Source: an uncultured Cytophagales bacterium
GTDB taxonomy: Bacteria; Bacteroidota; Bacteroidia; Cytophagales; JAAEPT01
Length of the DNA stretch: 64,000 nt
NCBI GenBank assembly: GCA_963815495.1
Contig: CAWFGW010000001.1
Location: forward strand, 65,873 to 129,872
Direction: 5' to 3'
The notes beneath the pieces were generated by a model. The model ran no database searches. It worked only from the letters and a program-made list of their open reading frames with translations, and was not told the origin of the DNA. Shown here one piece after another: positions 14,687 to 27,131 of the stretch; positions within the stretch are counted from its first letter, which is position 1, and every line of letters starts with the position of its first letter. A program made the position numbers and the translations under genes.

Positions 14687-15712
14687 ATGAGCGATAAAGA
14701 TAAATCAGAAAAGCTAAAAGCGCTACAGCTGACGGTAGATAAAATTGAAAAAACATACGGAAAAGGTGCTGTAATGAAATTAAGCGATGAACGCATCGTT
14801 GACATTCCTGCTATTTCTACAGGTTCTCTCGGATTAGATATTGCTTTGGGCATTGGTGGAATTCCTCGTGGAAGAGTAGTTGAAATTTATGGACCTGAAT
14901 CATCTGGTAAAACCACGCTCTCTATGCATTGCATTGCTGAAGCACAAAAGGCGGGAGGCATGGCGGCTTTTATTGATGCGGAGCATGCTTTTGATAAGAC
15001 GTATGCAGAACGATTAGGTATTGATACTGAAAACCTACTCATTTCTCAACCAGACAATGGTGAACAAGCACTAGAAATTACGGAACACTTAATTCGTTCT
15101 GGGGCTATTGATATTATTGTTATTGACTCCGTAGCTGCTTTAACTCCTAAAGCTGAATTGGAAGGTGAAATGGGTGATAGTAAAATGGGTCTTCAAGCAC
15201 GTTTGATGTCACAAGCGTTAAGAAAGCTGACGGGTGCTATTAATAAAACAGGGTGCTCTTGTATCTTCATTAATCAATTGCGTGAAAAAATTGGCGTGAT
15301 GTTCGGAAACCCAGAAACAACTACCGGTGGTAATGCTTTGAAATTCTATGCTTCTGTTCGATTAGACATCAGAAGAATAGGTCAGATAAAAGAATCGCCC
15401 GATTCAATTACTGGTAACCGAGTGAAAGTGAAAGTGGTAAAAAACAAAGTTGCGCCTCCATTCAAAGTGATTGAGTTTGACATTATGTATGGTGAGGGAA
15501 TCTCTAAAATTGGTGAAATACTTGATTTAGGGGTTGACTTAGACATCATAGAGAAAGCGGGTTCTTGGTTTTCGTATTCAGGAAATAAACTAGGACAAGG
15601 TAGAGATACCGTGAAAGCTTTATTGAAAGATAACCCAGAATTGTCTGACGAAATTGAAGCTAAAATTAGAGCTAAAGTAAGTGGGAAAGTTCCTGCTGTT
15701 GTGGAAGCTTAA
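14687..15712 (+). CDS. recA: recombinase RecA
   Basis: 341 aa. Walker [10 protein letters not shown] and unmistakable RecA core sequence. Confidence 0.97.
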
Positions 15713-15758
15713 GTTTGAATAAAGACGCTAGAGTCAAGAAACAAGATTGGAAAAATAG

Positions 15759-15797
15759 AAAACCCCGAATTACTTGGTAATTTCGGGGTTTTTCTTT
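15759..15797. terminator. bidirectional intrinsic terminator after recA
   Basis: aaaaccccgaa / ttcggggtttt stem of 11 bp with a 12-nt loop. T-runs follow on both strands. Confidence 0.7.
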
Positions 15798-16006
15798 GAT
15801 AAATAGTTTACAATCACAACACGTATCAACAATAGCCATGGGGTGCCGTGGAAAAGCAAATCTCCCCAATCCATGAGTTGCATGCCTTCCGCACCTCCAG
15901 CGATCCATTTGATTTTTCCCCAAATATGTGGTTCAGGTACAAATGGAGCTAGTCCCAAAGTTAAAGTAGCTAATAACCAGGTCTTGGTGTCGTTAAGTAT
16001 TTTCAA
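15770..16006 (-). CDS. small hydrophobic protein, last gene of the YeeE operon
   Basis: 78-aa ORF. Its start overlaps the upstream YeeE stop by 4 nt. Its 3' end runs into the terminator loop. Confidence 0.4.
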   Translation of the reverse strand: MKILNDTKTWLLATLTLGLAPFVPEPHIWGKIKWIAGGAEGMQLMDWGDLLFHGTPWLLLIRVVIVNYLSKKNPEITK

Positions 16007-16416
16007 TGCGGTAGTTTATCTTTTAATAAACCATATACAAACGTTCCAGCAACTGCACTGATTACACCAAGAATCATGACATACACACCTGCTCCAACTA
16101 ATATGAATAACGGACCAGGACAAGCCCCAGTAAGTGCCCATCCAAACCCAAAAATAACCCCTCCCGCTAAATAGCGTGTAACGGACATTTCTTTTGGGTC
16201 AGTAGTGATAGGAATTCCTTCGGTAGAGTTGAGATGGGTTCGTTTTATTAGTTGTAACATGACGATACCTAAAACAACAGCCGAGCCTATAACTCCATAC
16301 ATATGAAAAGATTGAAAACGGAACATTTCGTAAATCCGATACCAAGAGATAATTTCGGCTTTGGTGAGAACAATTCCGAAGACTATTCCAATAATATAAA
16401 ATCGTATTAATTTCAT
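16003..16416 (-). CDS. YeeE/YedE-family sulfur-compound transporter component (short half)
   Basis: 137 aa and 4-TM-like, with the GACPG motif typical of YeeE/YedE repeats. Confidence 0.7.
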   Translation of the reverse strand: MKLIRFYIIGIVFGIVLTKAEIISWYRIYEMFRFQSFHMYGVIGSAVVLGIVMLQLIKRTHLNSTEGIPITTDPKEMSVTRYLAGGVIFGFGWALTGACPGPLFILVGAGVYVMILGVISAVAGTFVYGLLKDKLPH

Positions 16417-16428
16417 GGAGAGCTAATT

Positions 16429-16995
16429 TTAAAGGGCCAGAATATAAGGAAGGATGAAATAAGTTGTAATTAGTCCGCCAATGAAAAAACCAATTGTGGC
16501 AATCAATGAGGGAAGCTGTAAATCACTTAATCCGCTGATAGCATGGCCAGAAGTACAACCGCCTGCATAACGAGTGCCAAAGCCGACTAAGAAACCACCT
16601 ATTATAATCAGAATAAAACCTTTTAAGGTGAAAACAGATTCCCAACTGAATAATTCCTGAGGTACTAATCCATCACCAGGGTTGGCAATGCCGAACGATT
16701 GAAGCTCGGTAACGACCGTACCAGATAATTGAATTGTCGAGCCATCAGAAAGGTAATGCACAGCAATAAATCCACCAGTGATGGATCCAGCTACAAAGAT
16801 TAAATTCCATACTTGAGCTTTCCAATCGAAGTTAAAGAAGTCAGCATATTTACCACAGCCTCCCATGGCACACATCGTTCTTAAATTAGAGGATAAGCCA
16901 AAGCGTTTTCCAAAGAGAAGCAGCAAAAACATGACAAAGGTTATGGAAGGTCCAGCCACATACCAGGGCCATGGTTGTTTAATGATTTCTAACAT
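16429..16995 (-). CDS. YeeE/YedE-family sulfur-compound transporter component
   Basis: ORF 16429..17031. The likely start is MLEIIKQPWPWYVAG (16995). GGCTSGH motif. Confidence 0.7.
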   Translation of the reverse strand: MLEIIKQPWPWYVAGPSITFVMFLLLLFGKRFGLSSNLRTMCAMGGCGKYADFFNFDWKAQVWNLIFVAGSITGGFIAVHYLSDGSTIQLSGTVVTELQSFGIANPGDGLVPQELFSWESVFTLKGFILIIIGGFLVGFGTRYAGGCTSGHAISGLSDLQLPSLIATIGFFIGGLITTYFILPYILAL

Positions 16996-17009
16996 GTTCT
17001 TATTTATTT

Positions 17010-18422
17010 TTATAATAAAGTACTGGGACAAACATAAGCTGTTAAAGGAAGGTTTGTTTCTTTGATTGCTCCAAATCCTCCAGCGATATCGATGACATTT
17101 TCATACCCTCTAGCTTTTAAAATAGACGCAGCGATCATGGAACGGTAACCACCACCACAATGAATATGGTAGGCTTTATTTTTATCCAGTTCTTGAAGGT
17201 GTTCATTGATTGCATCCAATGGGAAGTTCTGAACTCGATCATCATCAATTCTTTCCGATTGATATTCAGATTCTTTTCTAACATCAATTACCGTAAGGTC
17301 ATTATTAAATTCTTGTTCGAGTTGCTCAGCAGAAATAGAAGCGATGGAATCCACTTCTTTACCTGCTTTTTTCCAAGCATCAATACCACCTTCTAAAAAA
17401 CCCAACGTATTATCGTATCCAACACGAGAAAGCCGTGTGATTACCTCTTCTTCCCGGCCTTCATCAGTCACTAATAAAATAGGTTGTTTTAAATCTAAGA
17501 TGAGGGCACCTACCCATGGAGCAAAACCACCATCAATCCCAATGTTTATACTTTTAGGAATAAATCCATCTTTAAAAACCTGTGGTTTACGCGTATCCAG
17601 GATTAAGGCTTGCTCGGCATTTGCAATTTCTTCAAATAATTCAGGAGCCAAGGCAACATCTCCTTTTTCAAGAATACGCTCTAAATCATTATATCCCTCT
17701 TTATTTAATTTAACGTTTTTAGGAAAATACTGCGGAGGTGTTACCAACCCTGTAGTTACTTCTTTTATAAATTCCTCTTTAGTCATGTTTGCGCGAAGAG
17801 CATAGTTGGTTTCTTTCTGATGACCAAGCGTATCAAAAGTTTCTTTGCTCATGTTTTTACCACAGGCGGATCCTGCTCCATGTGCGGGATAAACCAACAC
17901 ATCATTAGGCAACGTCATGATTTTAGTACGCAATGAATCGTATAACATGCCTGCTAAATCTTCCACGGTAAGGTGTGATTTTGCAGCTAAGTCTGGACGA
18001 CCAACATCACCGATAAATAAGGTGTCACCTGAGAAAATAGCTTTTTCTTTTCCTTCTGCATCTAATAATAAATAAGTGACAGATTCCTCAGTATGTCCAG
18101 GTGTATGTAACACTTTAATTTGAACTTCTCCTAATTGGAAAATTTGGTTGTCTTGAGCAATAATGGCGTCATAATTAGGGTTAGCTTTTGGTCCAAAGAT
18201 GATTGGAGCCCCTGTTTTTTCAGCTAAAGTAACGTGACCAGAAACGAAATCAGCATGGAAGTGTGTTTCAAAAATATACTTGATTTTCGCTCCTTCTTTT
18301 TCAGCTTTTTCGATATATGGTTTAGTTTCTCTTAATGGATCAATGATAGCTGCTTCACCATTGGATTCAATGTAATAAGCACCTTGTGCTAAACAACCTG
18401 TATATATTTGTTCTATTTTCAT
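17010..18422 (-). CDS. MBL-fold persulfide-dioxygenase-like domain fused to two rhodanese domains
   Basis: 470 aa. Metallo-beta-lactamase HxHxDH (THFHADFVSGH) N-terminal half. C-terminal rhodanese with the active-site loop CGGGYRS. Confidence 0.8.
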   Translation of the reverse strand: MKIEQIYTGCLAQGAYYIESNGEAAIIDPLRETKPYIEKAEKEGAKIKYIFETHFHADFVSGHVTLAEKTGAPIIFGPKANPNYDAIIAQDNQIFQLGEVQIKVLHTPGHTEESVTYLLLDAEGKEKAIFSGDTLFIGDVGRPDLAAKSHLTVEDLAGMLYDSLRTKIMTLPNDVLVYPAHGAGSACGKNMSKETFDTLGHQKETNYALRANMTKEEFIKEVTTGLVTPPQYFPKNVKLNKEGYNDLERILEKGDVALAPELFEEIANAEQALILDTRKPQVFKDGFIPKSINIGIDGGFAPWVGALILDLKQPILLVTDEGREEEVITRLSRVGYDNTLGFLEGGIDAWKKAGKEVDSIASISAEQLEQEFNNDLTVIDVRKESEYQSERIDDDRVQNFPLDAINEHLQELDKNKAYHIHCGGGYRSMIAASILKARGYENVIDIAGGFGAIKETNLPLTAYVCPSTLL

Positions 18423-18462
18423 TTTTGTTACTTTTTGGTGATGGATTTCTTAGTTTATACTA

Positions 18463-18506
18463 CAATAATAAATGATGTAAAGGTAGTATTCAGTGATAGG
18501 AATCAC
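18463..18506 (-). promoter_or_regulatory. Crp-type box GTGATAGGAATCAC (18493-18506) + 22 nt + -7-like TATTATTG (ends 18463)
   Basis: The palindrome and spacing were read directly. Faces the MBL-rhodanese/YeeE operon. Confidence 0.55.
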
Positions 18507-18716
18507 ATAAGCTTGTTTTATTGGGTAAACATTGAAAGCTCTGCTGAATATAAAATTTCTCTTGCTTTTCTTCACATAAAAAACACAGTTAGTACTGATA
18601 AGGCAGATGTTTTTAAGATCACAAAGGAAATCAATTGGTAGAAATATTTTTATTTATGTATAAATAATCAGACATTCATCACTCAGATTTTCAACCATTT
18701 AAAAAAATTTATTACT

Positions 18717-19283
18717 ATGAAACAAAAATTACTAATTAATACGTTTTTGTTCTTAAGTATAGTTGTTTTTGCGACTGAACATCACGTGAAAATTGAAGGG
18801 TTTACCTTTTCACCGGCAGCATTAACTATTGAAGTAGGGGATATGGTGACTTGGACTAATTTTGATGGGGCACCACACACGGCAAGTTCAATCGCTGTTC
18901 CTTCTGGCGCTACAACTTTTGAGAGCGGTACATTATCGGCTAGTGATAGTTATTCTTTTACATTTAATTTAGCGGGGGATTATTCTTATTGGTGCAATTT
19001 TCATACACATATGAAAGCAACAATTACCGTAGAAGCACCTCTCGGCATCTCTAATTTAGCTTTCGAAAACGTGGAGATATATCCTAATCCGGTTTCCCAA
19101 CAAACTGTAATTGAAGGATTGAATAAAGTCACTAACTATTTTATCTTTAGTATTAAAGGAGACTTGGTAGCAACAGGAAAAACCACTGAACTTAATTTTG
19201 ACTTGTTAGAAACGGGTACTTATTTTGTTCGATTTGAATTAGAAGGAGATAAATCAAAAACAATTCGAATTGTTAAAAACTAA
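18717..19283 (+). CDS. type-1 copper (cupredoxin, amicyanin-like) protein with a T9SS C-terminal sorting domain
   Basis: 188 aa. Signal peptide, copper ligands GAPHT and WCNFHTHM (C-x2-H-x2-M), then IYPNPVSQQTVIEG...TYFVRFELEGDKSKTIRIVKN. Confidence 0.75.
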   Translation: MKQKLLINTFLFLSIVVFATEHHVKIEGFTFSPAALTIEVGDMVTWTNFDGAPHTASSIAVPSGATTFESGTLSASDSYSFTFNLAGDYSYWCNFHTHMKATITVEAPLGISNLAFENVEIYPNPVSQQTVIEGLNKVTNYFIFSIKGDLVATGKTTELNFDLLETGTYFVRFELEGDKSKTIRIVKN

Positions 19284-19323
19284 TTTCAGGTATTATCACC
19301 CTTAATCAGGGCTGACCGGAGTT

Positions 19324-21063
19324 TTAAACCTCCCGTTCTTTAAACAAATTCGTCTGTGCAGCGTGTTTAAACTTTACTCTATGCGATTTGGTTTCTGGAT
19401 GATCGTAGTAATCAATGGCGGATTGCACATCGAGAAAGAATTTATGTTCCCCAAACTCTTGCACAAAGTTGGTGCGGTGAAGGTAGTCGCGGACTGGACC
19501 AATAACTCCTGAAAAACTAACTTCAATCTTTTGCTTCTGTAATTCTATAATCTCATCTTTTAAGGACTGTAACGCAGTATTATCAATATGAGAAATACTT
19601 CCACAATGCAATACAATTAGACGTAGGTTATTCCCTTTTTTACTTATTTCTTTTTTTAACACCTCGAGGAAATTGTTAATGTTTGCAAAAAAAAGTTGTC
19701 CATCTTGGCGAATCACTAAGACATCTTTTCGCACCTCTATTTCTTTAAAACGTGTAACATTTCTGTAATCCTTAGTTTTAGGAAGACGACCTAAAATGGC
19801 GATGTGGGGTAATGAAGTTCGATAAATTAACAGAATCAATGACATCAAAATCCCTGCTCCGATACCTTCTTTGATACCCAAAAATAATGTAACAAGGAAA
19901 GCTGCTGCCAGCATATAAAAATCTTGTTTATTCGTGTTCCAAAGTTGTTGTGGGTATTTGAAATCAAGCAAACCATAAACTGCCACTAGGATGATTGAGG
20001 CTAACATGGTTTTTGGCAAATCGTGAAATAGAGGGGTTAGGAATAACAGCACTAACCCCACTAAAATGGCACTAAAAACAGCTGCTAAATTAGTACGTGC
20101 TCCTGATTGGTCATTTACTGCAGAGCGAGAAAAACCGCCAGTAGTAGAGTAACAACCAAAGAAAGCACCTACAACATTTCCCATTCCAAGGCCGATTAGC
20201 TCTTGATTGTTTTCGATTTCGTATTCACCTTTGTGTTTTTCTTGGATGGCTTTTGCTACAGAAATCGCTTCCATAAAGGCAATTAGTGCTAATGTAAAGG
20301 CAATAGGAATTAATTCTGTAAGGTTGGAATTTGTGAGGTCTGGGATACTAAAAACTGGAAACCCAGACGAAACTTCTCCAACTACGTTAAATTTTATTGG
20401 TGTGAATTTCACGAATAGTATTCCCACGATAACGGCTAGCAATGCTCCAGGTATCTTTGGATGGATTTTTTTGACATATTTCACAATAAATATTCCTATG
20501 ATACCCAAGCTTATTGACCACCAGTTGTAATTTTTTATCTGTTGGGCAGCATCCCATAAAATTTCAAATGGAAAATTACTCTTAGTAAGCTGTATGTCAA
20601 GTAGGTATTTCAACTGATCAATACCGATGATGAAAGCTGCGGCAGAAGTAAATCCGCTAATGACTGGTTTTGAAAGAAAATTGACCAAAAATCCTAGGCG
20701 AAAAATACCAAAAGACAACTGGATAATTCCCATCAGGAATGCCAGTAAAATAGCTAAGGAGATGTAGTTTTCTGTGCCAACAACGGCAAAAGTTGAAATA
20801 CCAGCGGCTACTAATAAAGAATCCATGGCGACTGGTCCTACTGCCAATTGACGAGAAGTACCAAAAAAAGCATAAACTACTTGAGGAACCATTGCAGCAT
20901 ATAAGCCATAAACGGGAGGTAATCCCGCAATCATAGCATAAGCCATACCTTGTGGAATTAGCATAACACCGACCGTAAGTCCTGCAGCTAAATCACCACT
21001 GAGGTCTTCTTTTTTATAGTTTGGAAGCCATTCGAGGATGGGTAAGTATTTTTTCAAATTCAT
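19324..21063 (-). CDS. SulP-family inorganic anion transporter with a C-terminal STAS domain
   Basis: ORF 19324..21072 opens with GTG. The ATG at 21063 (MNLKKYLPILEWLP...) is favoured by the promoter geometry. The N-terminus and STAS tail are SulP-typical. Confidence 0.88.
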   Translation of the reverse strand: MNLKKYLPILEWLPNYKKEDLSGDLAAGLTVGVMLIPQGMAYAMIAGLPPVYGLYAAMVPQVVYAFFGTSRQLAVGPVAMDSLLVAAGISTFAVVGTENYISLAILLAFLMGIIQLSFGIFRLGFLVNFLSKPVISGFTSAAAFIIGIDQLKYLLDIQLTKSNFPFEILWDAAQQIKNYNWWSISLGIIGIFIVKYVKKIHPKIPGALLAVIVGILFVKFTPIKFNVVGEVSSGFPVFSIPDLTNSNLTELIPIAFTLALIAFMEAISVAKAIQEKHKGEYEIENNQELIGLGMGNVVGAFFGCYSTTGGFSRSAVNDQSGARTNLAAVFSAILVGLVLLFLTPLFHDLPKTMLASIILVAVYGLLDFKYPQQLWNTNKQDFYMLAAAFLVTLFLGIKEGIGAGILMSLILLIYRTSLPHIAILGRLPKTKDYRNVTRFKEIEVRKDVLVIRQDGQLFFANINNFLEVLKKEISKKGNNLRLIVLHCGSISHIDNTALQSLKDEIIELQKQKIEVSFSGVIGPVRDYLHRTNFVQEFGEHKFFLDVQSAIDYYDHPETKSHRVKFKHAAQTNLFKEREV

Positions 21064-21071
21064 AGTCACCA

Positions 21072-21115
21072 CAAAGTTTATAATTATAGAATATTTAATT
21101 GGTGATTCGAATCAC
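21072..21115 (-). promoter_or_regulatory. Crp-type box GTGATTCGAATCAC (21102-21115) + 22 nt + -7-like AAACTTTG (ends 21072)
   Basis: Read directly. Faces the SulP gene. Confidence 0.55.
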
Positions 21116-21265
21116 ATAAAAAAATAATCCCTGAATGAATTAAATGCATTCAGAGAAAGCTATTGGTATCAGTTTTTCATTTCTTACAAAACTTACTTTT
21201 TAACTTATTGTTATCTTTTGGTTTACGCCTGTACTTTTACTGTTTTTGTTATCATAATATTGTGT

Positions 21266-21309
21266 GTGACTTTTATCACTGAAGAAAGTCCACGGATTCT
21301 TTAAGTTTG
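21266..21309 (+). promoter_or_regulatory. Crp-type box GTGACTTTTATCAC (21266-21279) + 22 nt + -7 box TAAGTTTG (21302-21309)
   Basis: Read directly. Faces the rhodanese/DUF2892/hydroxylase operon. Confidence 0.6.
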
Positions 21310-21327
21310 AATGAAAAAAATTGGCAC

Positions 21328-21708
21328 ATGAAAAATTATTTGTATTTCTTCCCACTTTTGATGGTTTTAGTTTCGGCTTGTTCCCAAAAACAACCTTTAG
21401 CAAAAGACCTTTCGGCAAAGGAGTTTAAGTCATTGTTGGAAAAAAAGCAAGGAGTAGTACTCGATGTGCGAACACCTGAAGAAGTAGTGTCTGGTAAAAT
21501 AAGTCAATCGATCAATTTAAATTACTTCGGTGACTTTAAAGCACAAGCATTGAAATTGGATAAAACAAAACCAATCTATGTGTATTGCGCCTCTGGTGGA
21601 AGAAGTACTAAAGCAATGCAAGACCTTAATAGAATGGGGTTTATCGAGGTTTACAATTTGTTAGGAGGTTTTGGGGCTTGGCGTGCAGCGAAATTTCCTG
21701 AAGAATAA
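21328..21708 (+). CDS. rhodanese-domain lipoprotein
   Basis: The in-frame ATG at 21328 gives MKNYLYFFPLLMVLVSACSQ (lipobox). Active-site loop CASGGRS. Confidence 0.8.
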   Translation: MKNYLYFFPLLMVLVSACSQKQPLAKDLSAKEFKSLLEKKQGVVLDVRTPEEVVSGKISQSINLNYFGDFKAQALKLDKTKPIYVYCASGGRSTKAMQDLNRMGFIEVYNLLGGFGAWRAAKFPEE

Positions 21709-21719
21709 AGAATAATAGT

Positions 21720-21911
21720 ATGAAAAATTGGTCTTTTATACGTGTGCTTAGATTAGTGATGGCTGGGGTGATTACCTTTCAAGCGGTTGAGTCAAAAACA
21801 TGGTGGATGTTTGCCATTGCAGGTTTATTATTGTATCAAGTAATCACTAATTCTTCGTGTGGTGCATGTGCTACTGGAAGTTGTGAAATACCAGAAAAAA
21901 CGGAGAAATGA
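21720..21911 (+). CDS. small two-TM protein, DUF2892/YgaP-membrane-domain-like, with a Cys-rich tail
   Basis: 63 aa with two hydrophobic helices and the tail SSCGACATGSCE. Family assignment is from memory. Confidence 0.45.
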   Translation: MKNWSFIRVLRLVMAGVITFQAVESKTWWMFAIAGLLLYQVITNSSCGACATGSCEIPEKTEK

Positions 21912-22804
21912 AATATATAGAAATAGCTATCGGGTCGTTTATAGGCTATGCTTCATACCTGTGGAGTTCCATTGTAAGTCCCGGTTGGGATAACTATTTC
22001 TATTATTTAATTACCTTATCCTTACTTGTTTGGGTAGTAGAAATTATTGTTCCTTGGCGTAAAAAACAACCGATGTTTCGTAAAGATTTTTGGTTAGATG
22101 CCTTTTACATGTTTTTTAATTTCTTTCTTTTTAGTCTAGTTGCTTACAATGCGCTTTCTAATGTTGGCGTAGAGTTGTTCAATGATTTATTAAGACTAGT
22201 TGGAATTGAAAACGTGGTGGCAATCAATGTTGAATCATTGCCAGTTTGGGGTCAGTTTTTACTCTTATTTTTATTAGCTGATTTGATTCAATGGGCAGTT
22301 CATGTGATGCTTCACCGTGTTGATTGGATGTGGAAATTTCATAAAGTGCATCACTCGGTTACAGAAATGGGGTTTGCAGCGCACTTGCGTTTTCATTGGA
22401 TGGAAACGATATTCTATAAAACTGCTTTATATTTACCGCTGACAATGATAGGATTCGGTATTAAAGACCTGTTTTTACTTCACGCGTTTACCATTTTGAT
22501 TGGACATATTAACCATTCAAATATTAAAATCAGTTATGGGCCTCTGAAGTATGTGTTGAATAATCCTGTAATGCATATTTGGCACCATGCAAAAGACTTA
22601 CCCAAGGATATTAAATATGGAATGAATTATGGAATTTCCTTGAGCATTTGGGACCACATGTTCGGTACGGCTCATATTCCATATGATGGGCGTGATATCG
22701 AATTAGGCTTTGATGAGGTAGAAGAATATCCAGAAGGTTTTTTGGAGCAGATGAAGGTGCCTTTTTTGAAAAAGAGTCAAGTGTCAAGACACAAGAACCA
22801 ATAA
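21908..22804 (+). CDS. sterol desaturase / fatty-acid hydroxylase family membrane di-iron enzyme
   Basis: 298 aa with His boxes HRVDWMWKFHKVHHS and HIWHH. The start overlaps the upstream stop (ATGA). Confidence 0.8.
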   Translation: MKYIEIAIGSFIGYASYLWSSIVSPGWDNYFYYLITLSLLVWVVEIIVPWRKKQPMFRKDFWLDAFYMFFNFFLFSLVAYNALSNVGVELFNDLLRLVGIENVVAINVESLPVWGQFLLLFLLADLIQWAVHVMLHRVDWMWKFHKVHHSVTEMGFAAHLRFHWMETIFYKTALYLPLTMIGFGIKDLFLLHAFTILIGHINHSNIKISYGPLKYVLNNPVMHIWHHAKDLPKDIKYGMNYGISLSIWDHMFGTAHIPYDGRDIELGFDEVEEYPEGFLEQMKVPFLKKSQVSRHKNQ

Positions 22805-22840
22805 AAATTGAAATTCAGCTTCTTGCCATCATTTGTTATA

Positions 22841-22858
22841 CCCCCCCCCTTTTTTTTT
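22841..22858. repeat. C9T9 homopolymer pair
   Basis: ccccccccc ttttttttt read directly. Flanked by the direct repeats ttgccatSatttgt. Confidence 0.9.
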
Positions 22859-22912
22859 AACCTTTGCCATGATTTGTGAAGACACAAACCATCATCTAGT
22901 TTAAAAAAACTT

Positions 22913-22956
22913 ATGATTTTAATCATAACCAATAGGTTCTAAGTTTTGTAATTTTG
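22913..22956 (+). promoter_or_regulatory. Crp-type box ATGATTTTAATCAT (22913-22926) + 22 nt + -7 box TAATTTTG (22949-22956)
   Basis: Read directly. The truncated-hemoglobin ATG follows 5 nt after the -7 box. Confidence 0.6.
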
Positions 22957-22961
22957 AGTCA

Positions 22962-23333
22962 ATGAAAAAGCAAATTCAATCCCCAAAAGAAATACAACTG
23001 ATGGTTAATGCCTTTTACGCAAACGTGCGTAAAGATGAACTACTAGGACCTATTTTTGAAAAACACATAGAAGACCGCTGGCCAGCGCACTTGGAGAAAA
23101 TGTATACTTTTTGGGGCAGTATTTTATTGGGGGAGAATTCGTATTCAGGTCATCCCTTTGCCCCACATGTGAAGTTGCCGATTCAAAAAGAACACTTTCA
23201 ACATTGGTTGGAAATTTTCAATACTACTCTTGACGAATTATTTGAAGGCGAAGTAGCTGCTGAAGCAAAAAACAGGGCTAAGATAATGGCGACTTTGTTT
23301 GAGAGTAAAAAGGCGTATTTGGATAAAATGTAA
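22962..23333 (+). CDS. group III truncated hemoglobin-like protein
   Basis: 123 aa. FYANVRKDELLGPIF...W..HL.KMYTFWGSILLGENSYSGHPF..H pattern, from memory of trHb III. Confidence 0.65.
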   Translation: MKKQIQSPKEIQLMVNAFYANVRKDELLGPIFEKHIEDRWPAHLEKMYTFWGSILLGENSYSGHPFAPHVKLPIQKEHFQHWLEIFNTTLDELFEGEVAAEAKNRAKIMATLFESKKAYLDKM

Positions 23334-23412
23334 AAGGAAGAAAATAGAAAGAAGAAGGACCTTAAGAAACATGAACACCATCCTAATAGTCTAATCTCTC
23401 ATATCTAACATC

Positions 23413-24051
23413 TCAATACTTGCTACTCAACAAAGTAATCTGATTCCTACCCAACTTCACCATTCCCATATTTTCTAATTTTTTTAACAAACGGGAAACG
23501 GCTTCACGGGAAGAGTTTAAGGATAAAGCAATTTCTTGATGCGTAATGCAAAATTCCTCTTTTTTCAATACTCGCGCTCGGTCTTTTAGATATTTAATCA
23601 ACCGTTTGTCCATGCTATCAAAAGCAATGGAGTCCAAGGTTTCGAATAATTCATCCATTCGTTTTGAAAAAGTTAACAAAACGAAATCACGCCAGTCTTT
23701 GTATTTACCCATCCATAAATCCATGTACTGTACAGGGATCATCAGTAGGGTAGTATTCTCTTCTGCAACTGCCCTAATGCTGCTTTTTTCTTGGTGCATA
23801 CAACATGTAAAAGATACTGCACAGGTATTGCCGCCTTCAAGGTAGTAAAGCAGGATTTCATTACCCTCCTCATCTTCCCGCATAATTTTGACTGAACCAT
23901 TCACTACGAGAGGCATATATTTAATGTATTGTCCAATATCCATCAGCTGAGTACCCGCTTCTACTGTTTTTTGTGAACCCACTTTTTCGATTTCTTCCAA
24001 CAGGTTTTTGTCGTTCAGTAAAGGAAAATGTTCTTTGATGAATGTTGACAT
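23413..24051 (-). CDS. Crp/Fnr-family transcriptional regulator (Cys-rich effector domain)
   Basis: 212 aa. cNMP-binding-like beta-roll plus a C-terminal HTH THQEIALSLNSSREAVSRLLKKLE. Cys77, Cys83 and Cys84 cluster. Confidence 0.85.
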   Translation of the reverse strand: MSTFIKEHFPLLNDKNLLEEIEKVGSQKTVEAGTQLMDIGQYIKYMPLVVNGSVKIMREDEEGNEILLYYLEGGNTCAVSFTCCMHQEKSSIRAVAEENTTLLMIPVQYMDLWMGKYKDWRDFVLLTFSKRMDELFETLDSIAFDSMDKRLIKYLKDRARVLKKEEFCITHQEIALSLNSSREAVSRLLKKLENMGMVKLGRNQITLLSSKY

Positions 24052-24151
24052 AGATAGGACAATTTAAAAGAAGAGTCTAAAACGCCATACTACGCGAAGA
24101 GAAGATGGCGGTTCTACTAATTTTTTATTCACTTTTAATAATTAATTAAAA

Positions 24152-25756
24152 TCACATGTCTTTAAAGAAATCATTTCCCTTGTCATCACAGATGATGAAT
24201 GCGGGGAAGTTGACTACTTCAATTTTTCGAACCGCTTCCATTCCTAATTCAGGGAAATCAACCACTTCAACCGATTTAATATTTTCTTTGGCTAAAATAG
24301 CTGCGGGTCCTCCAATAGATCCCAAATAGAAACCTCCATACTGTTCACATGCTTCACGCACTTGTGGCGATCGATTTCCTTTTGCTAACATCACCATTGA
24401 CCCACCATGTCCTTGGAACAAACCAACATAGGAATCCATGCGCCCAGCTGTCGTAGGACCAAAACTACCAGAAGGCATTCCCTCGGGAGTTTTTGCTGGT
24501 CCCGCGTAATAAATAGGGTGGTTTTTAAAGTACTCAGGCATTGGTTTGCCTGCATCCAATAGCTCTTTAATTTTTGCATGAGCGATATCTCTGGCTACAA
24601 TCAAAGTACCGTTTAATATCAATCGAGTTTTTATAGTGTGTTGAGAAAGCAGCTTAAGAATATCTTCCATCGGTTGGTTCAAGTCAACTACGACAGGTTT
24701 TTCTAAGTGTGGAGCCGTTTCAGGTAATAATCGGCCTGGGTTTTCTTCTAACTGTTCAATGAAAATACCTTCTTTAGTAATTTTACCTTTGATATTTCTA
24801 TCTGCTGAACAACTTACACCAATTCCCACAGGGCAAGAGGCCGCATGGCGAGGGAGACGAATGACTTTTACATCATGTGTAAAGTATTTACCGCCAAACT
24901 GAGCTCCGATTTGACTTTCCTGACAGATTAACTGTACTTTTTCTTCCCATTCCGAATCACGGAAAGCTTGTCCGCCCAAGTTACCTTCCGTTGGTAATTC
25001 ATCATAATAGCCCGCAGAAGCCATTTTGACCGCTTTTAAATTCGCCTCAGCCGAAGTACCCCCAATCACTAATGCTAAGTGATAAGGAGGGCAAGCTGCC
25101 GTACCTATTTCTTTTAATTTTTGCTGAACAAACTTCTTTAAACTCTCCTCATTCAACAACGCTTTTGTCTGTTGATATAAGTAGGTTTTATTTGCTGATC
25201 CGCCTCCCTTTGCTAAAAACAGGAATTTATATTCATCGCCTTTTTCAGCATATAAGTCTATTTGAGCAGGGAGGTTAGAGCCTGAATTTTTTTCATCAAA
25301 CATGCTGATAGGTACCACCTGAGAGTAACGTAGATTCCTGTTTTGGTAGGTGTTATAGATTCCTTTCGATAACCATTCAGCATCATCAACACCTGTCCAT
25401 ACATTTTCACCTTTTTTTCCCATAACAATTGCTGTTCCTGTATCTTGACAAGAAGGTAGTTGTCCTTCTGCTGCAACTTGTGCATTTTGGAGCAAGGTAT
25501 AAGCGACAAATCGATCATTGTCCGTAGCCTCTGGGTCTTCCAATATTTTAGCTACTTTTTCAAGGTGAGCCGTACGAAGGAAAAAAGATACATCAGCTAA
25601 AGCCCTTTCTGCCAATAGTTCCAACGCTTTTGGGTCAACCTTTAAGATGGTTCTGCCATCCACTTCTATAGTAGAAATGTAGTCGGTAGAAATTAATTTA
25701 TAGGTGGTTGGATCTTTTTTTAAAGGAAACGGTTTTTGATAGATGAATTCTGACAT
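24152..25756 (-). CDS. class I (Fe-S) fumarate hydratase
   Basis: 534 aa with fused alpha/beta Fe-S hydro-lyase domains ([27 protein letters not shown]). Confidence 0.88.
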
Positions 25757-25894
25757 ACGTGCTATTTATGTTTTAGGAAGTCGTGAAAATAGTCACCTTT
25801 CAGCACAATTTGAAATTATTTTTTTAAGTCCCCCACGGTTTTGGTTTTTGCATTAATATTGAAGCTTATGGACAAAATAAATTATTTATCTTCT

Positions 25895-25938
25895 GTGATT
25901 TTAATCACTGATAAGCAGGTTGTGATGAACTACTTTTG
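25895..25938 (+). promoter_or_regulatory. Crp-type box GTGATTTTAATCAC (25895-25908) + 22 nt + -7 box TACTTTTG (25931-25938)
   Basis: Read directly. Faces the 99-aa rhodanese gene. Confidence 0.6.
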
Positions 25939-25980
25939 AATTATAAAAATGTAAATATTCAATAACTAAATATAACAACA

Positions 25981-26280
25981 ATGGGCTTATTCAATATGAT
26001 TTTCGGAGGAACAGATACTGCAAAAGTACAGGACTTACTCGCTCAAGGAGCAAAAATTGTAGATGTTCGAACAACAAGTGAATTTAAGTCGGGACATAAT
26101 GAGGGAGCTATAAATATTCCGTTAGACACGCTTCAATCCAACATTAGTAAGATAAAAGGATATGGTAAACCAATCGTATTAGTATGTCTTTCTGGAGGAA
26201 GAGCTGGTTCAGCAAAAAATATATTAGCTAGTGCAGGGATCGAATGTGTGAATGCTGGTGGATGGACTAATTTAAGATAA
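25981..26280 (+). CDS. single-domain rhodanese
   Basis: 99 aa with the active-site loop CLSGGRA. Confidence 0.8.
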   Translation: MGLFNMIFGGTDTAKVQDLLAQGAKIVDVRTTSEFKSGHNEGAINIPLDTLQSNISKIKGYGKPIVLVCLSGGRAGSAKNILASAGIECVNAGGWTNLR

Positions 26281-26291
26281 GATTTACTAAG

Positions 26292-27131
26292 TTATTTGGC
26301 TGTATAAACTTTCCCTTCTTCTAATTCTAGTGGTTGTCCATCAACCAAAAACTTGACAGGAATACTGGTAACTTCATTGATGCCACTATAAGAAAATACC
26401 TCAAAGTGTAGGTGTGGTCCTGATGACCAACCCGTATTACCACTTTGCCCAATAAGTTCGCCCGCCTCAACTTTATCTCCGTGCTTTACTTTTACTCCAC
26501 CTTTTTTAAGGTGAAAGTAGTTAGCAAAGGTGCCATCTTCATGATAAATGGTAATGTAATTCCCGGAGTTTTGAAAAGAAGGGTGTGATCCACCTTTTGA
26601 ATCAGATGATCGCGTTTCAACGACAATCCCCGAACGGGCAGCATACACATCCGTGCCGTTTTCCATGCTGAAATCAAGAGCATATTTTCTACCTTTCATG
26701 TGATGAGAAAATTTGCCTCCATAACCTTGATCTACTGAATGAGCAGTCCCTGATTTGTAAGGAAGCTGATAAATTACTTCATCATTGTGTTTAGCGTTAA
26801 AATCACCTTTGGAATAACCCATGGAGATAGAATAACTCGTAGCCGAATTAGGTTTGGGCGTTAGTTCAAATAATTTGAATTTTTCTGATTGTGCAGGTAC
26901 AACAGTTCTGAAAGGCAAATTAACCGAAGCCTTTAAATTTTGAAGTTTTGGGAAGTCAATGTTTAAGGTATAGGGACAATAGTTGGTGTTACTTGCGTAG
27001 TAAACGATTTTACCATCTACTTTTTCACTGGTTAATTGAATGGAATCATCGGTTGGTTGTTGGTGGGTGAAACTGAAAAAAAGCAGTCCTAAAAAAAGGA
27101 CAATGAATAACTTGAGTTTGGGTGAGTTCAT
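26292..27131 (-). CDS. M23-family metallopeptidase (secreted)
   Basis: 279 aa. Signal peptide, HxxxD-like region and C-terminal GNTGWSSGPHLHFEV. Confidence 0.85.
   Translation of the reverse strand: MNSPKLKLFIVLFLGLLFFSFTHQQPTDDSIQLTSEKVDGKIVYYASNTNYCPYTLNIDFPKLQNLKASVNLPFRTVVPAQSEKFKLFELTPKPNSATSYSISMGYSKGDFNAKHNDEVIYQLPYKSGTAHSVDQGYGGKFSHHMKGRKYALDFSMENGTDVYAARSGIVVETRSSDSKGGSHPSFQNSGNYITIYHEDGTFANYFHLKKGGVKVKHGDKVEAGELIGQSGNTGWSSGPHLHFEVFSYSGINEVTSIPVKFLVDGQPLELEEGKVYTAK

Follow-up and report, generated by a model that had tools for sequence, protein, structure and literature searches.

A Crp/Fnr-type operator at class II spacing from Bacteroidota promoters in a sulfur gene cluster, and its likely cognate regulator

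Which protein acts on a palindrome that recurs at a fixed distance from the promoter throughout a cluster of sulfur-handling genes, and with what effect? This question is raised by a stretch of 64,000 nt from an uncultured Cytophagales bacterium (GenBank assembly GCA_963815495.1, contig CAWFGW010000001.1, positions 65,873 to 129,872 of the forward strand), hereafter called the window. A preliminary description of the cluster, made from its sequence, had pointed to five intergenic palindromes of the form GTGA-N6-TCAC, each followed by a -7 box of the Bacteroidota type (TAnnTTTG), and had named the Crp/Fnr-family protein encoded at 23413-24051 as their candidate binder. On the evidence assembled here we think it likely that the boxes are operators of the dimer of this protein, which would act as a class II activator of the sulfur units in response to a reactive-sulfur signal. 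The sites and genes are listed in Table 1.

In the sequence of 18000-26500, the coordinates and strands of all five palindromic 14-mers and all five 8-mers agree with the preliminary description, and in each of the five sites the 8-mer ends exactly 30 nt beyond the palindrome, in the direction of the gene. The exact palindrome GTGA-N6-TCAC is found five times in the window against 0.50 expected, a number that none of 100 dinucleotide-preserving shuffles reaches; the box alone with one mismatch is at background level (23 observed, 18.6 expected). For the composite pattern RTGA-N6-TCAY-N22-TAnnTTTG with at most one mismatch there are five matches where 0.30 would be expected, and here too no shuffle among 100 attains that number. 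These are exactly the five sites first described, and no further one was found within the 64 kb, as had been concluded by eye. Two of the original statements hold in part. Four of the described palindromes are exact GTGA-N6-TCAC; the one at 22913-22926 reads ATGA..TCAT, and a further exact copy at 25783-25796 had been overlooked. Leaderless or near-leaderless mRNAs, expected for several promoters, are predicted for two units, the SulP transporter (~4 nt) and the truncated hemoglobin (trHb, ~1 nt), and not for the other three. Four of the five promoter sites of the window are secure.

The regulator has thousands of homologues, named just 'Crp/Fnr family transcriptional regulator'. By scanning one genome per species for homologues with at least 44% identity to the window protein we obtained 80 loci from Saprospiraceae, Cytophagales, Flavobacteriales, Chitinophagales and Bacteroidales; the counts of sites below use 79 of them, without the window and its closest relative, locus L001. 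For each box, distances to the ends of all TAnnTTTG motifs up to 80 nt away were counted from its last base. Measured in this way, GTGA-N6-TCAC boxes show the 30-nt distance in 21 of 29 pairs, and GTRA-type boxes, in which GTAA half-sites are also allowed, in 50 of 64, every other distance occurring at most twice. Among the half-sites compared, the peak at 30 nt is restricted to GTGA and GTAA palindromes: CTGA palindromes give no pairs at this distance, and TTGA-N6-TCAA gives none against 11 at other distances. In the information profile of 41 independent sites, 19 unconserved positions separate TGTGAy-N4-rTCACagA from TAnCTTTG. The operator part of the profile, TGTGAy-N4-rTCACA, has the 5-bp half-sites 4-6 bp apart that characterize Crp/Fnr palindromes, and the spacer between box and TAnnTTTG contains no conserved -33 element. 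In four loci (L050, L004, L006 and L028) one palindrome is shared by two divergent genes, each with its own -7 box; the distance to either box is 30 nt, apart from a single 31-nt distance in L004. Predicted leaders across the loci are usually 10-45 nt long. The conservation of box and spacing beside orthologs, which had been proposed as a check in related Flavobacteriia, is thus borne out by the pair counts; the closest genome is labelled Cytophagales, contrary to the expected affiliation.

The same comparison bears on the idea that the five sites arose by chance or through the spread of a repeat. Such an origin could be suspected in AT-rich intergenic DNA, where the sites had been picked by eye with mismatches allowed. 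Yet the window holds five sites where 0.3-0.5 would be expected, a number that no shuffle attains; the box and -7 positions are conserved without their flanks, and the pattern recurs in distant families of the phylum. We regard either origin as practically excluded.

The position of the operator suggests how its occupant might work. In the transcriptome map of Flavobacterium psychrophilum, the sigma-A element TAnnTTTG is located at -12 to -5 (PMC9723704). When the -7 boxes are placed accordingly, the operator covers -48 to -35 with its centre computed at -41.5; the 22 bp from box to TAnnTTTG thereby give the class II position, overlapping the upstream promoter element, and support the earlier claim of a class II arrangement centred near -41/-42 over the -33 region. 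In class II CRP promoters of E. coli, GTGA-N6-TCAC is likewise found at -48 to -35, with the TA of TATAAT at -12/-11. The same binding could instead serve repression over the -33 region, relieved by reactive sulfur in the manner of CstR, SqrR and BigR. The box does overlap the position of a would-be -33 element, and the well-studied dedicated persulfide sensors are all repressors with the exception of FisR (review PMC13467558). For a repressor, however, overlap would be enough and a distance exact to the base pair would not be needed, yet 50 of the 64 pairs are spaced by exactly 30 nt, the distance that reproduces the -41.5 geometry of E. coli. The lack of a conserved -33 element is expected of promoters that depend on an activator, and the symmetric placement of single boxes between divergent -7 boxes also speaks against repression, which we consider improbable. 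Class II activation is the preferred interpretation of the geometry.

The protein itself has the features required for binding such boxes. It scores above the cut-offs for PF00027, PF13545 and PF00325, and its AlphaFold model (mean predicted local distance difference test score 80) shows the Crp/Fnr fold, in which strands extend to residue 106 and are followed by a helix (118-162) and a helix-turn-helix (171-194). The domain content assigns it to the Crp/Fnr superfamily; the top fold matches (CRP, FNR, NtcA and HcpR) are generic only. A profile alignment to E. coli CRP matches its SREAVSR with SRETVGR, so that Arg182, Glu183 and Arg187 correspond to Arg180, Glu181 and Arg185, the three base-contacting residues of CRP (PMC1274295). 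All 80 homologues have both Arg182 and Arg187. Glu183, the residue of the window protein, occurs in 52 of them and Val183 in the other 28; Pro never occurs at this position. The boxes differ in the same way: the third half-site position is G in 72 and A in 11 cases at Glu183 loci, the window's among those with GTGA boxes, as opposed to 91 A and 4 G at Val183 loci, where the box reads GTAAC-N4-GTTAC and the distance of 30 nt is unchanged. Through this covariation the box is linked to the 23413-24051 regulator, whose original nomination as the binder is thereby upheld, and the joint change from Glu to Val and from GTGA to GTAA is what the contact known in CRP would predict. Among the matches listed from a scan of metagenome contigs (see below), all 15 TGTGA-selected loci that encode a regulator homologue have a Glu183 copy. 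The Val183 type occurs only in records labelled Flavobacteriales.

Bacteroidota have many Crp/Fnr paralogues, and the boxes might therefore belong to another protein of this kind, either a global CRP-like factor or a paralogue that keeps only the first of the three sensor-domain cysteines discussed below, Cys77. A paralogous subfamily of the latter type was found in nine metagenome loci (L083, L094, L138, L153, L162, L169, L174, L192 and L200). It has Glu183, retains Cys77, Ser90 and the Arg-Glu-Arg helix without Cys83 and Cys84, and adjoins genes for small YgaP-like transmembrane (TM; DUF2892) proteins that carry TGTGAC-N4-GTCACA at 30 nt, boxes of identical geometry. Against this, composite sites were found beside the regulator in 48 of the 79 loci collected through its own homologues, the box sequence follows residue 183 of its own family, and no second Crp/Fnr gene was found within the window. 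One metagenome locus (L092, contig ERZ651776.24) encodes both a Val183 copy with the cysteine triad and a Glu183 copy with Cys77 only, and these two differ in predicted specificity; the Flavobacteriales switch of the box may keep two such paralogues from cross-talk. We judge a different Crp/Fnr binder to be improbable and retain the 23413-24051 product.

The genes behind the sites indicate what is regulated. In the 48 loci there are 86 composite sites, and the first open reading frames (ORFs) behind them encode MBL-rhodanese proteins (23), TauE (13), SulP (10), rhodaneses (5), YeeE (3), YgaP-like TM proteins (3) and the regulator itself (3), as well as SQR-type flavoproteins, thioredoxins, fatty-acid (FA) hydroxylases and a small membrane protein (2 each). 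At least one such gene is present within the fetched flanks in 56 of the 79 loci. In a test independent of the regulator, public metagenome contigs were scanned with TGTGAY-N4-RTCAC-N22-TAnnTTTG alone, which gave at least 120 loci. Among the matches listed, a member of a sulfur or thiol family is the first downstream ORF in 31 of 120: YgaP-like TM in 12, MBL-rhodanese in 5, thioredoxin in 4, rhodanese in 3, TauE in 2, a small membrane protein in 2, and SulP, an SQR-like protein and a relative of the window's 63-aa Cys-motif ORF in one each; about 45 of these 120 loci contain at least one sulfur or thiol gene. Many of the remaining matches are in high-GC contigs and look like chance. The earlier claim of a sulfur-handling regulon is supported by the same gene families behind composite sites elsewhere, and the combination of SQR, persulfide dioxygenase (PDO), rhodanese and sulfur-transporter genes typical of a persulfide-sensor regulon is found over the 79 genome loci and the 120 listed metagenome loci. 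In five contigs with 55-57% GC (L107, L154, L161, L170 and L173), which may not be from Bacteroidota, the pattern precedes a ~326-aa protein with many CxxCH motifs that looks like a multiheme cytochrome c.

The sensor domain differs from that of CRP at the ligand pocket. Cys77 and Ser90 are present in all 80 homologues, Cys83 in 78 and Cys84 in 79. These residues align to CRP positions 70, 75, 76 and 82 in the case of Cys77, Cys83, Cys84 and Ser90, respectively, and the three cysteines lie in the phosphate-binding cassette of CRP (70-83), the former nucleotide pocket. Of the residues with which CRP contacts cyclic AMP (cAMP), Glu72, Arg82 and Ser83, the first is replaced by Val, for which homologues have Met or Leu, and the second by the invariant Ser90. 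The protein reaches 49.7 with the NCBIfam CRP equivalog (cut-off 266), 31.8 with the Fnr model (cut-off 228) and is far below the cut-off of the NtcA family model; no Cys precedes residue 77, and the N-terminal Cys cluster of FNR is accordingly missing. Given the low model confidence of this segment, the chemistry at Cys77/83/84 could be a persulfide bridge, an iron-sulfur (Fe-S) cluster or a metal. The signal is most likely sulfide-derived reactive sulfur, because the regulon is the set that CstR, SqrR/BigR and FisR control in other phyla. The highly conserved loop R58-E65 (REDEEGNE) aligns with residues 52-58 of activating region 3 (AR3) of CRP and has Glu at the position of Lys52. In CRP, Lys52 is inhibitory and AR3 serves as a sigma contact.

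A different signal would leave binding and activation as proposed: a cluster, a metal or a disulfide at the cysteines could report oxygen, general redox state or a sulfur oxyanion. FNR senses oxygen by a Cys-bound cluster, the regulator gene of the window stands between those of a globin and an Fe-S fumarase, and the Cys segment is poorly modelled, as is often the case at cofactor sites. However, three cysteines within eight beta-roll residues, below an N-terminus without Cys, are unlike the N-terminal pattern of FNR. Neither the globin nor the fumarase is conserved beside the regulator, which they adjoin only in L001 among the loci compared, and a regulon of SQR, PDO-like MBL-rhodanese, TauE, rhodanese and thioredoxin genes matches the known persulfide regulons. 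A signal other than reactive sulfur thus seems unlikely, with more to recommend it than either repression or a foreign binder.

Taken together, these data suggest the following mechanism. A dimer of the 23413-24051 product would bind GTGA-N6-TCAC through Arg182, Glu183 and Arg187. Its operator, 22 bp upstream of the TA of the -7 element, would replace the -33 element, and the dimer bound there would most likely be a class II activator that recruits RNA polymerase, with the acidic AR3-like loop (E59-E65) probably touching sigma region 4. Four units of the window would be activated: the MBL-rhodanese/YeeE/small-membrane-protein operon, SulP, the operon of rhodanese, small Cys protein and hydroxylase, and the single-domain rhodanese. 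Across the phylum the predicted regulon would also hold SQR, TauE and thioredoxins. Cys77, Cys83 and Cys84, in place of the cAMP phosphate-binding cassette, are the candidate sensors of reactive sulfur.

Several observations weigh against this mechanism or parts of it. The trHb site fits the weight matrix badly (<7 bits, compared with 15.3-19.6 for the four others), and the -7 box is mismatched at two of the four secure sites. Genes for SQR and TauE are absent from the window. The covariation of residue 183 with the box follows one clade and may represent a single evolutionary event. The paralogous subfamily, 32-42% identical, shares the TGTGA box and its spacing beside YgaP-TM genes, and cross-binding by such a paralogue would be possible if the window's genome carries one. 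The Cys segment is modelled with low confidence, residues 73-91 being the least confident of the domain. Finally, geometry is the sole ground on which activation is predicted.

The closest known parallel is E. coli CRP at class II promoters centred at -41.5, such as galP1. Shared features are the two-domain Crp/Fnr fold, the Arg-Glu-x3-Arg recognition helix with the TGTGA-N6-TCACA box, the 22 bp from TCAC to the TA at -12 with the box at -48 to -35, and the acidic loop at AR3 residues 52-58. In contrast to CRP, the window regulator has three pocket cysteines and none of the cAMP contacts, its partner promoter is of the Bacteroidota TAnnTTTG type, and it would control a small local sulfur regulon, not global catabolite responses. 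FNR differs by its TTGAT-N4-ATCAA boxes, those of the present family being of the GTGA/GTAA type. HcpR2 of Bacteroides, Clostridium and Thermotogales (Rodionov et al. 2005) is a precedent for a box change that accompanies a substitution at the CRP Glu181 position (PMC1274295); it is also a local Crp/Fnr regulator, and its GTAAC-N4-GTTAC box is that of the Flavobacteriales Val183 members, but it has Pro at the CRP-181 position where the window regulator family has Val or Glu. HcpR is described as a heme-binding sensor of nitric oxide that controls hcp (PMC12750200). The model of the window protein is only 14% identical to HcpR of P. gingivalis, and its family would control sulfur genes; hcp was not seen among the classified downstream genes, although it was absent from the reference set. 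PgRsp of P. gingivalis was set aside as a relative, being a CooA-like heme protein with a different regulon. By sequence, the best relative of solved structure is PDB 3dv8, an uncharacterised Crp/Fnr protein of the Firmicutes species Eubacterium rectale (E = 1.3e-28 with the family profile), which shares the equivalents of Cys77 and Cys83 and the SRE..R helix and has no equivalent of Cys84. Judged by these sequence features, the system would work like CRP at a class II promoter, but by its defining features it is not CRP, FNR or HcpR2.

In terms of regulon content, the relevant comparison is with CstR (CsoR fold), SqrR/BigR (ArsR fold) and FisR (a sigma-54 activator), which have sensor cysteines and control SQR, persulfide dioxygenase-rhodanese fusions, rhodaneses and TauE/YeeE-type transporters. 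The window regulator differs from them in its Crp/Fnr fold, in having three clustered cysteines rather than a pair, and in the predicted sigma-A class II activation, as opposed to de-repression by CstR and SqrR/BigR and sigma-54 activation by FisR. According to a review of August 2026, persulfide sensors are of the CsoR, ArsR (SqrR, BigR and others) and Fis types only, none of them from Bacteroidota (PMC13467558). In the literature searched for Crp/Fnr-family regulators and sulfur genes, we came across no protein of the Crp/Fnr type described as controlling sulfide or persulfide genes and, within the same scope, no sulfide or persulfide sensor of Bacteroidota. We tentatively propose, and rate slightly below an even prospect, that this family constitutes a fourth structural class of dedicated reactive-sulfur sensors: a Crp/Fnr fold in which Cys77/83/84 stand in for the phosphate cassette and sulfuration or polysulfide bridging mimics the ligand, giving a class II activator of the Bacteroidota sulfide-detoxification regulon whose -41.5 geometry works with the unusual -33/-7 sigma-A of the phylum and whose box was re-tuned in Flavobacteriales by the change from Glu to Val.

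Table 1. Sites and genes of the sulfur cluster in the window. Weight-matrix scores are from a matrix built from loci other than the window and its close relative L001; starts are predicted from the -12 to -5 placement of TAnnTTTG (PMC9723704); gene calls are confirmed by Pfam or NCBIfam where stated.
Feature	Sequence	Coordinates	Strand	Unit or basis of call	Score or predicted start
Box 1	GTGATAGGAATCAC	18493-18506		serves minus-strand MBL-rhodanese/YeeE operon	16.8 bits
-7 box of Box 1	TATTATTG, 1 mismatch	18463-18470	minus		start ~18458, leader 36 nt
Box 2	GTGATTCGAATCAC	21102-21115		serves minus-strand SulP	15.3 bits
-7 box of Box 2	AAACTTTG, 1 mismatch	21072-21079	minus		start ~21067, 4 nt before ATG at 21063
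Box 3	GTGACTTTTATCAC	21266-21279		serves rhodanese lipoprotein/63-aa ORF/fatty-acid hydroxylase operon	18.9 bits
-7 box of Box 3	TAAGTTTG	21302-21309	plus		start ~21314, leader 14 nt
Variant Box 4	ATGATTTTAATCAT	22913-22926		upstream of truncated hemoglobin	<7 bits
-7 box of variant Box 4	TAATTTTG	22949-22956	plus		start ~22961, 1 nt before trHb ATG at 22962
Box 5	GTGATTTTAATCAC	25895-25908		serves single-domain rhodanese	19.6 bits
-7 box of Box 5	TACTTTTG	25931-25938	plus		start ~25943, leader 38 nt
Sixth box, exact GTGA-N6-TCAC	GTGAAAATAGTCAC	25783-25796		27 nt upstream of class I fumarase start	7.9 bits
Small membrane protein, 78 aa		15770-16006	minus	after YeeE pair	
Split YeeE/Sulf_transp pair		16429-17031 and 16003-16416	minus	Pfam and NCBIfam	
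MBL-fold hydrolase, two rhodanese domains		17010-18422	minus	Pfam and NCBIfam	
SulP-family anion transporter with STAS domain		19324-21063	minus	Pfam and NCBIfam	
Rhodanese lipoprotein		21328-21708	plus	Pfam and NCBIfam	
63-aa membrane ORF, C-terminal CGACATGSC motif		21720-21911	plus	operon 21328-22804	
FA_hydroxylase-family protein		21908-22804	plus	Pfam and NCBIfam	
Truncated (bacterial-like) globin		22962-23333	plus	Pfam	
Crp/Fnr-family regulator, 212 aa		23413-24051	minus	Pfam	
Class I fumarase		24152-25756	minus	Pfam	
Single-domain rhodanese, 99 aa		25981-26280	plus	Pfam	

Two sites of the window are less certain than the rest. Box 4, upstream of trHb, has lost the outer G/C pair in both half-sites, the most informative position. 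Palindromes of its type, ATGA-N6-TCAT, form two pairs at 30 nt and eight at other distances in 1.96 Mb; the genes that follow the former two, one for a USP-like protein and deoC, are unrelated. From base composition we roughly estimate that a symmetric two-mismatch box followed by a perfect -7 box at precisely this distance would occur only about 0.03 times per window. From its sequence Box 4 is probably a real Crp/Fnr-type site, and trHb may be a fifth, weak target; that the 23413-24051 regulator uses it is a possibility we lean against. In L001 the final G of the trHb -7 box is replaced by A. The sixth box lacks a -7 box at the activating distance, and from its position could reflect only repression or chance. 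It is kept in L001, but the whole surrounding stretch is identical there too.

The locus L001, labelled Cytophagales, is a near-identical relative of the window with 79-95% DNA identity over the aligned stretches. It retains a box (GTGATGGATGTCAC) upstream of the MBL-rhodanese gene within 140 bp that cannot be aligned. Box 3 and its -7 box are kept upstream of the rhodanese lipoprotein despite an insertion of ~0.75 kb and a diverged spacer, and Box 5 is kept before the 99-aa rhodanese with one non-core base changed and a diverged, longer upstream region. The insertion, at ~12800-13500 of L001 (compared with 21160-21265 of the window), lies between the divergent SulP and rhodanese promoters and apparently contains a minus-strand ORF; the boxes on both sides of it are retained. 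A gene for a cupredoxin/plastocyanin-like protein with a type IX secretion system sorting tail (18717-19283) is absent from L001 together with its flanks, ~140 bp standing in its place. By this sequence comparison, the difference at 18425-19320 of the window, where the MBL-rhodanese promoter is set apart from the end of SulP, is due to a recent insertion or deletion.

Pfam agrees with the gene identities of the preliminary description throughout the cluster except for the 63-aa ORF at 21720-21911, which has no Pfam match and in particular does not match DUF2892/YgaP-like_TM. Its C-terminus is CGACATGSCEIP; a different small membrane protein with a similar C-terminal motif (CNAGSCAITSSP) is encoded directly behind composite sites in L126 and L129. 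The 17010-18422 product is persulfide-dioxygenase-like and weakly similar to Blh. The first operon (15770-18422, minus strand) probably comprises four genes, because the 78-aa ORF at 15770-16006 (LGLAPFVPEPHIWGKIKW...) is homologous to a protein encoded directly behind composite sites elsewhere (L006, L046, L128 and L140). Its family, for which one representative tested gave no Pfam match, is a recurrent, unnamed member of the regulon. The FA_hydroxylase-family protein, weakly OlsE-like, is encoded near the regulator in nine loci (including L006, L028, L047, L054, L055 and L064), and in two loci its gene is directly behind a composite site.

Other features concern the intergenic regions. A C9T9 homopolymer tract (22841-22858) is found after the hydroxylase gene and ahead of the trHb promoter, and is represented in L001 by C6 and an interrupted T run. 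Between the fumarase stop and the regulator start there is an inverted repeat (24083-24110), weak in the window, where it is followed by TTTT on the minus strand, and a long perfect hairpin in L001; this suggests a terminator and hence a separate promoter for the regulator. No box was seen upstream of the regulator gene in the window, and three other loci carry one. A scan of 15600-26400 for sigma-70 promoters and intrinsic terminators gave nothing above the shuffled expectation, as expected for a Bacteroidota genome.

Sulfide is common in sediments, oceans, soils and guts, of which Bacteroidota are major heterotrophic inhabitants. For the proposed response of these bacteria to reactive sulfur, a regulator, an operator, a regulon and candidate sensor residues are now concrete, and culturable carriers are at hand in Haliscomenobacter hydrossis, Aquimarina amphilecti, Euzebyella marina and Winogradskyella aurantia. 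The split of Glu183 and Val183 against GTGA and GTAA is a ready-made specificity swap. The fixed spacing is the clearest sequence evidence we have found that class II activation at -41.5 would persist with the TAnnTTTG promoter, a link that is useful for promoter annotation and for inducible expression tools in Bacteroidota.

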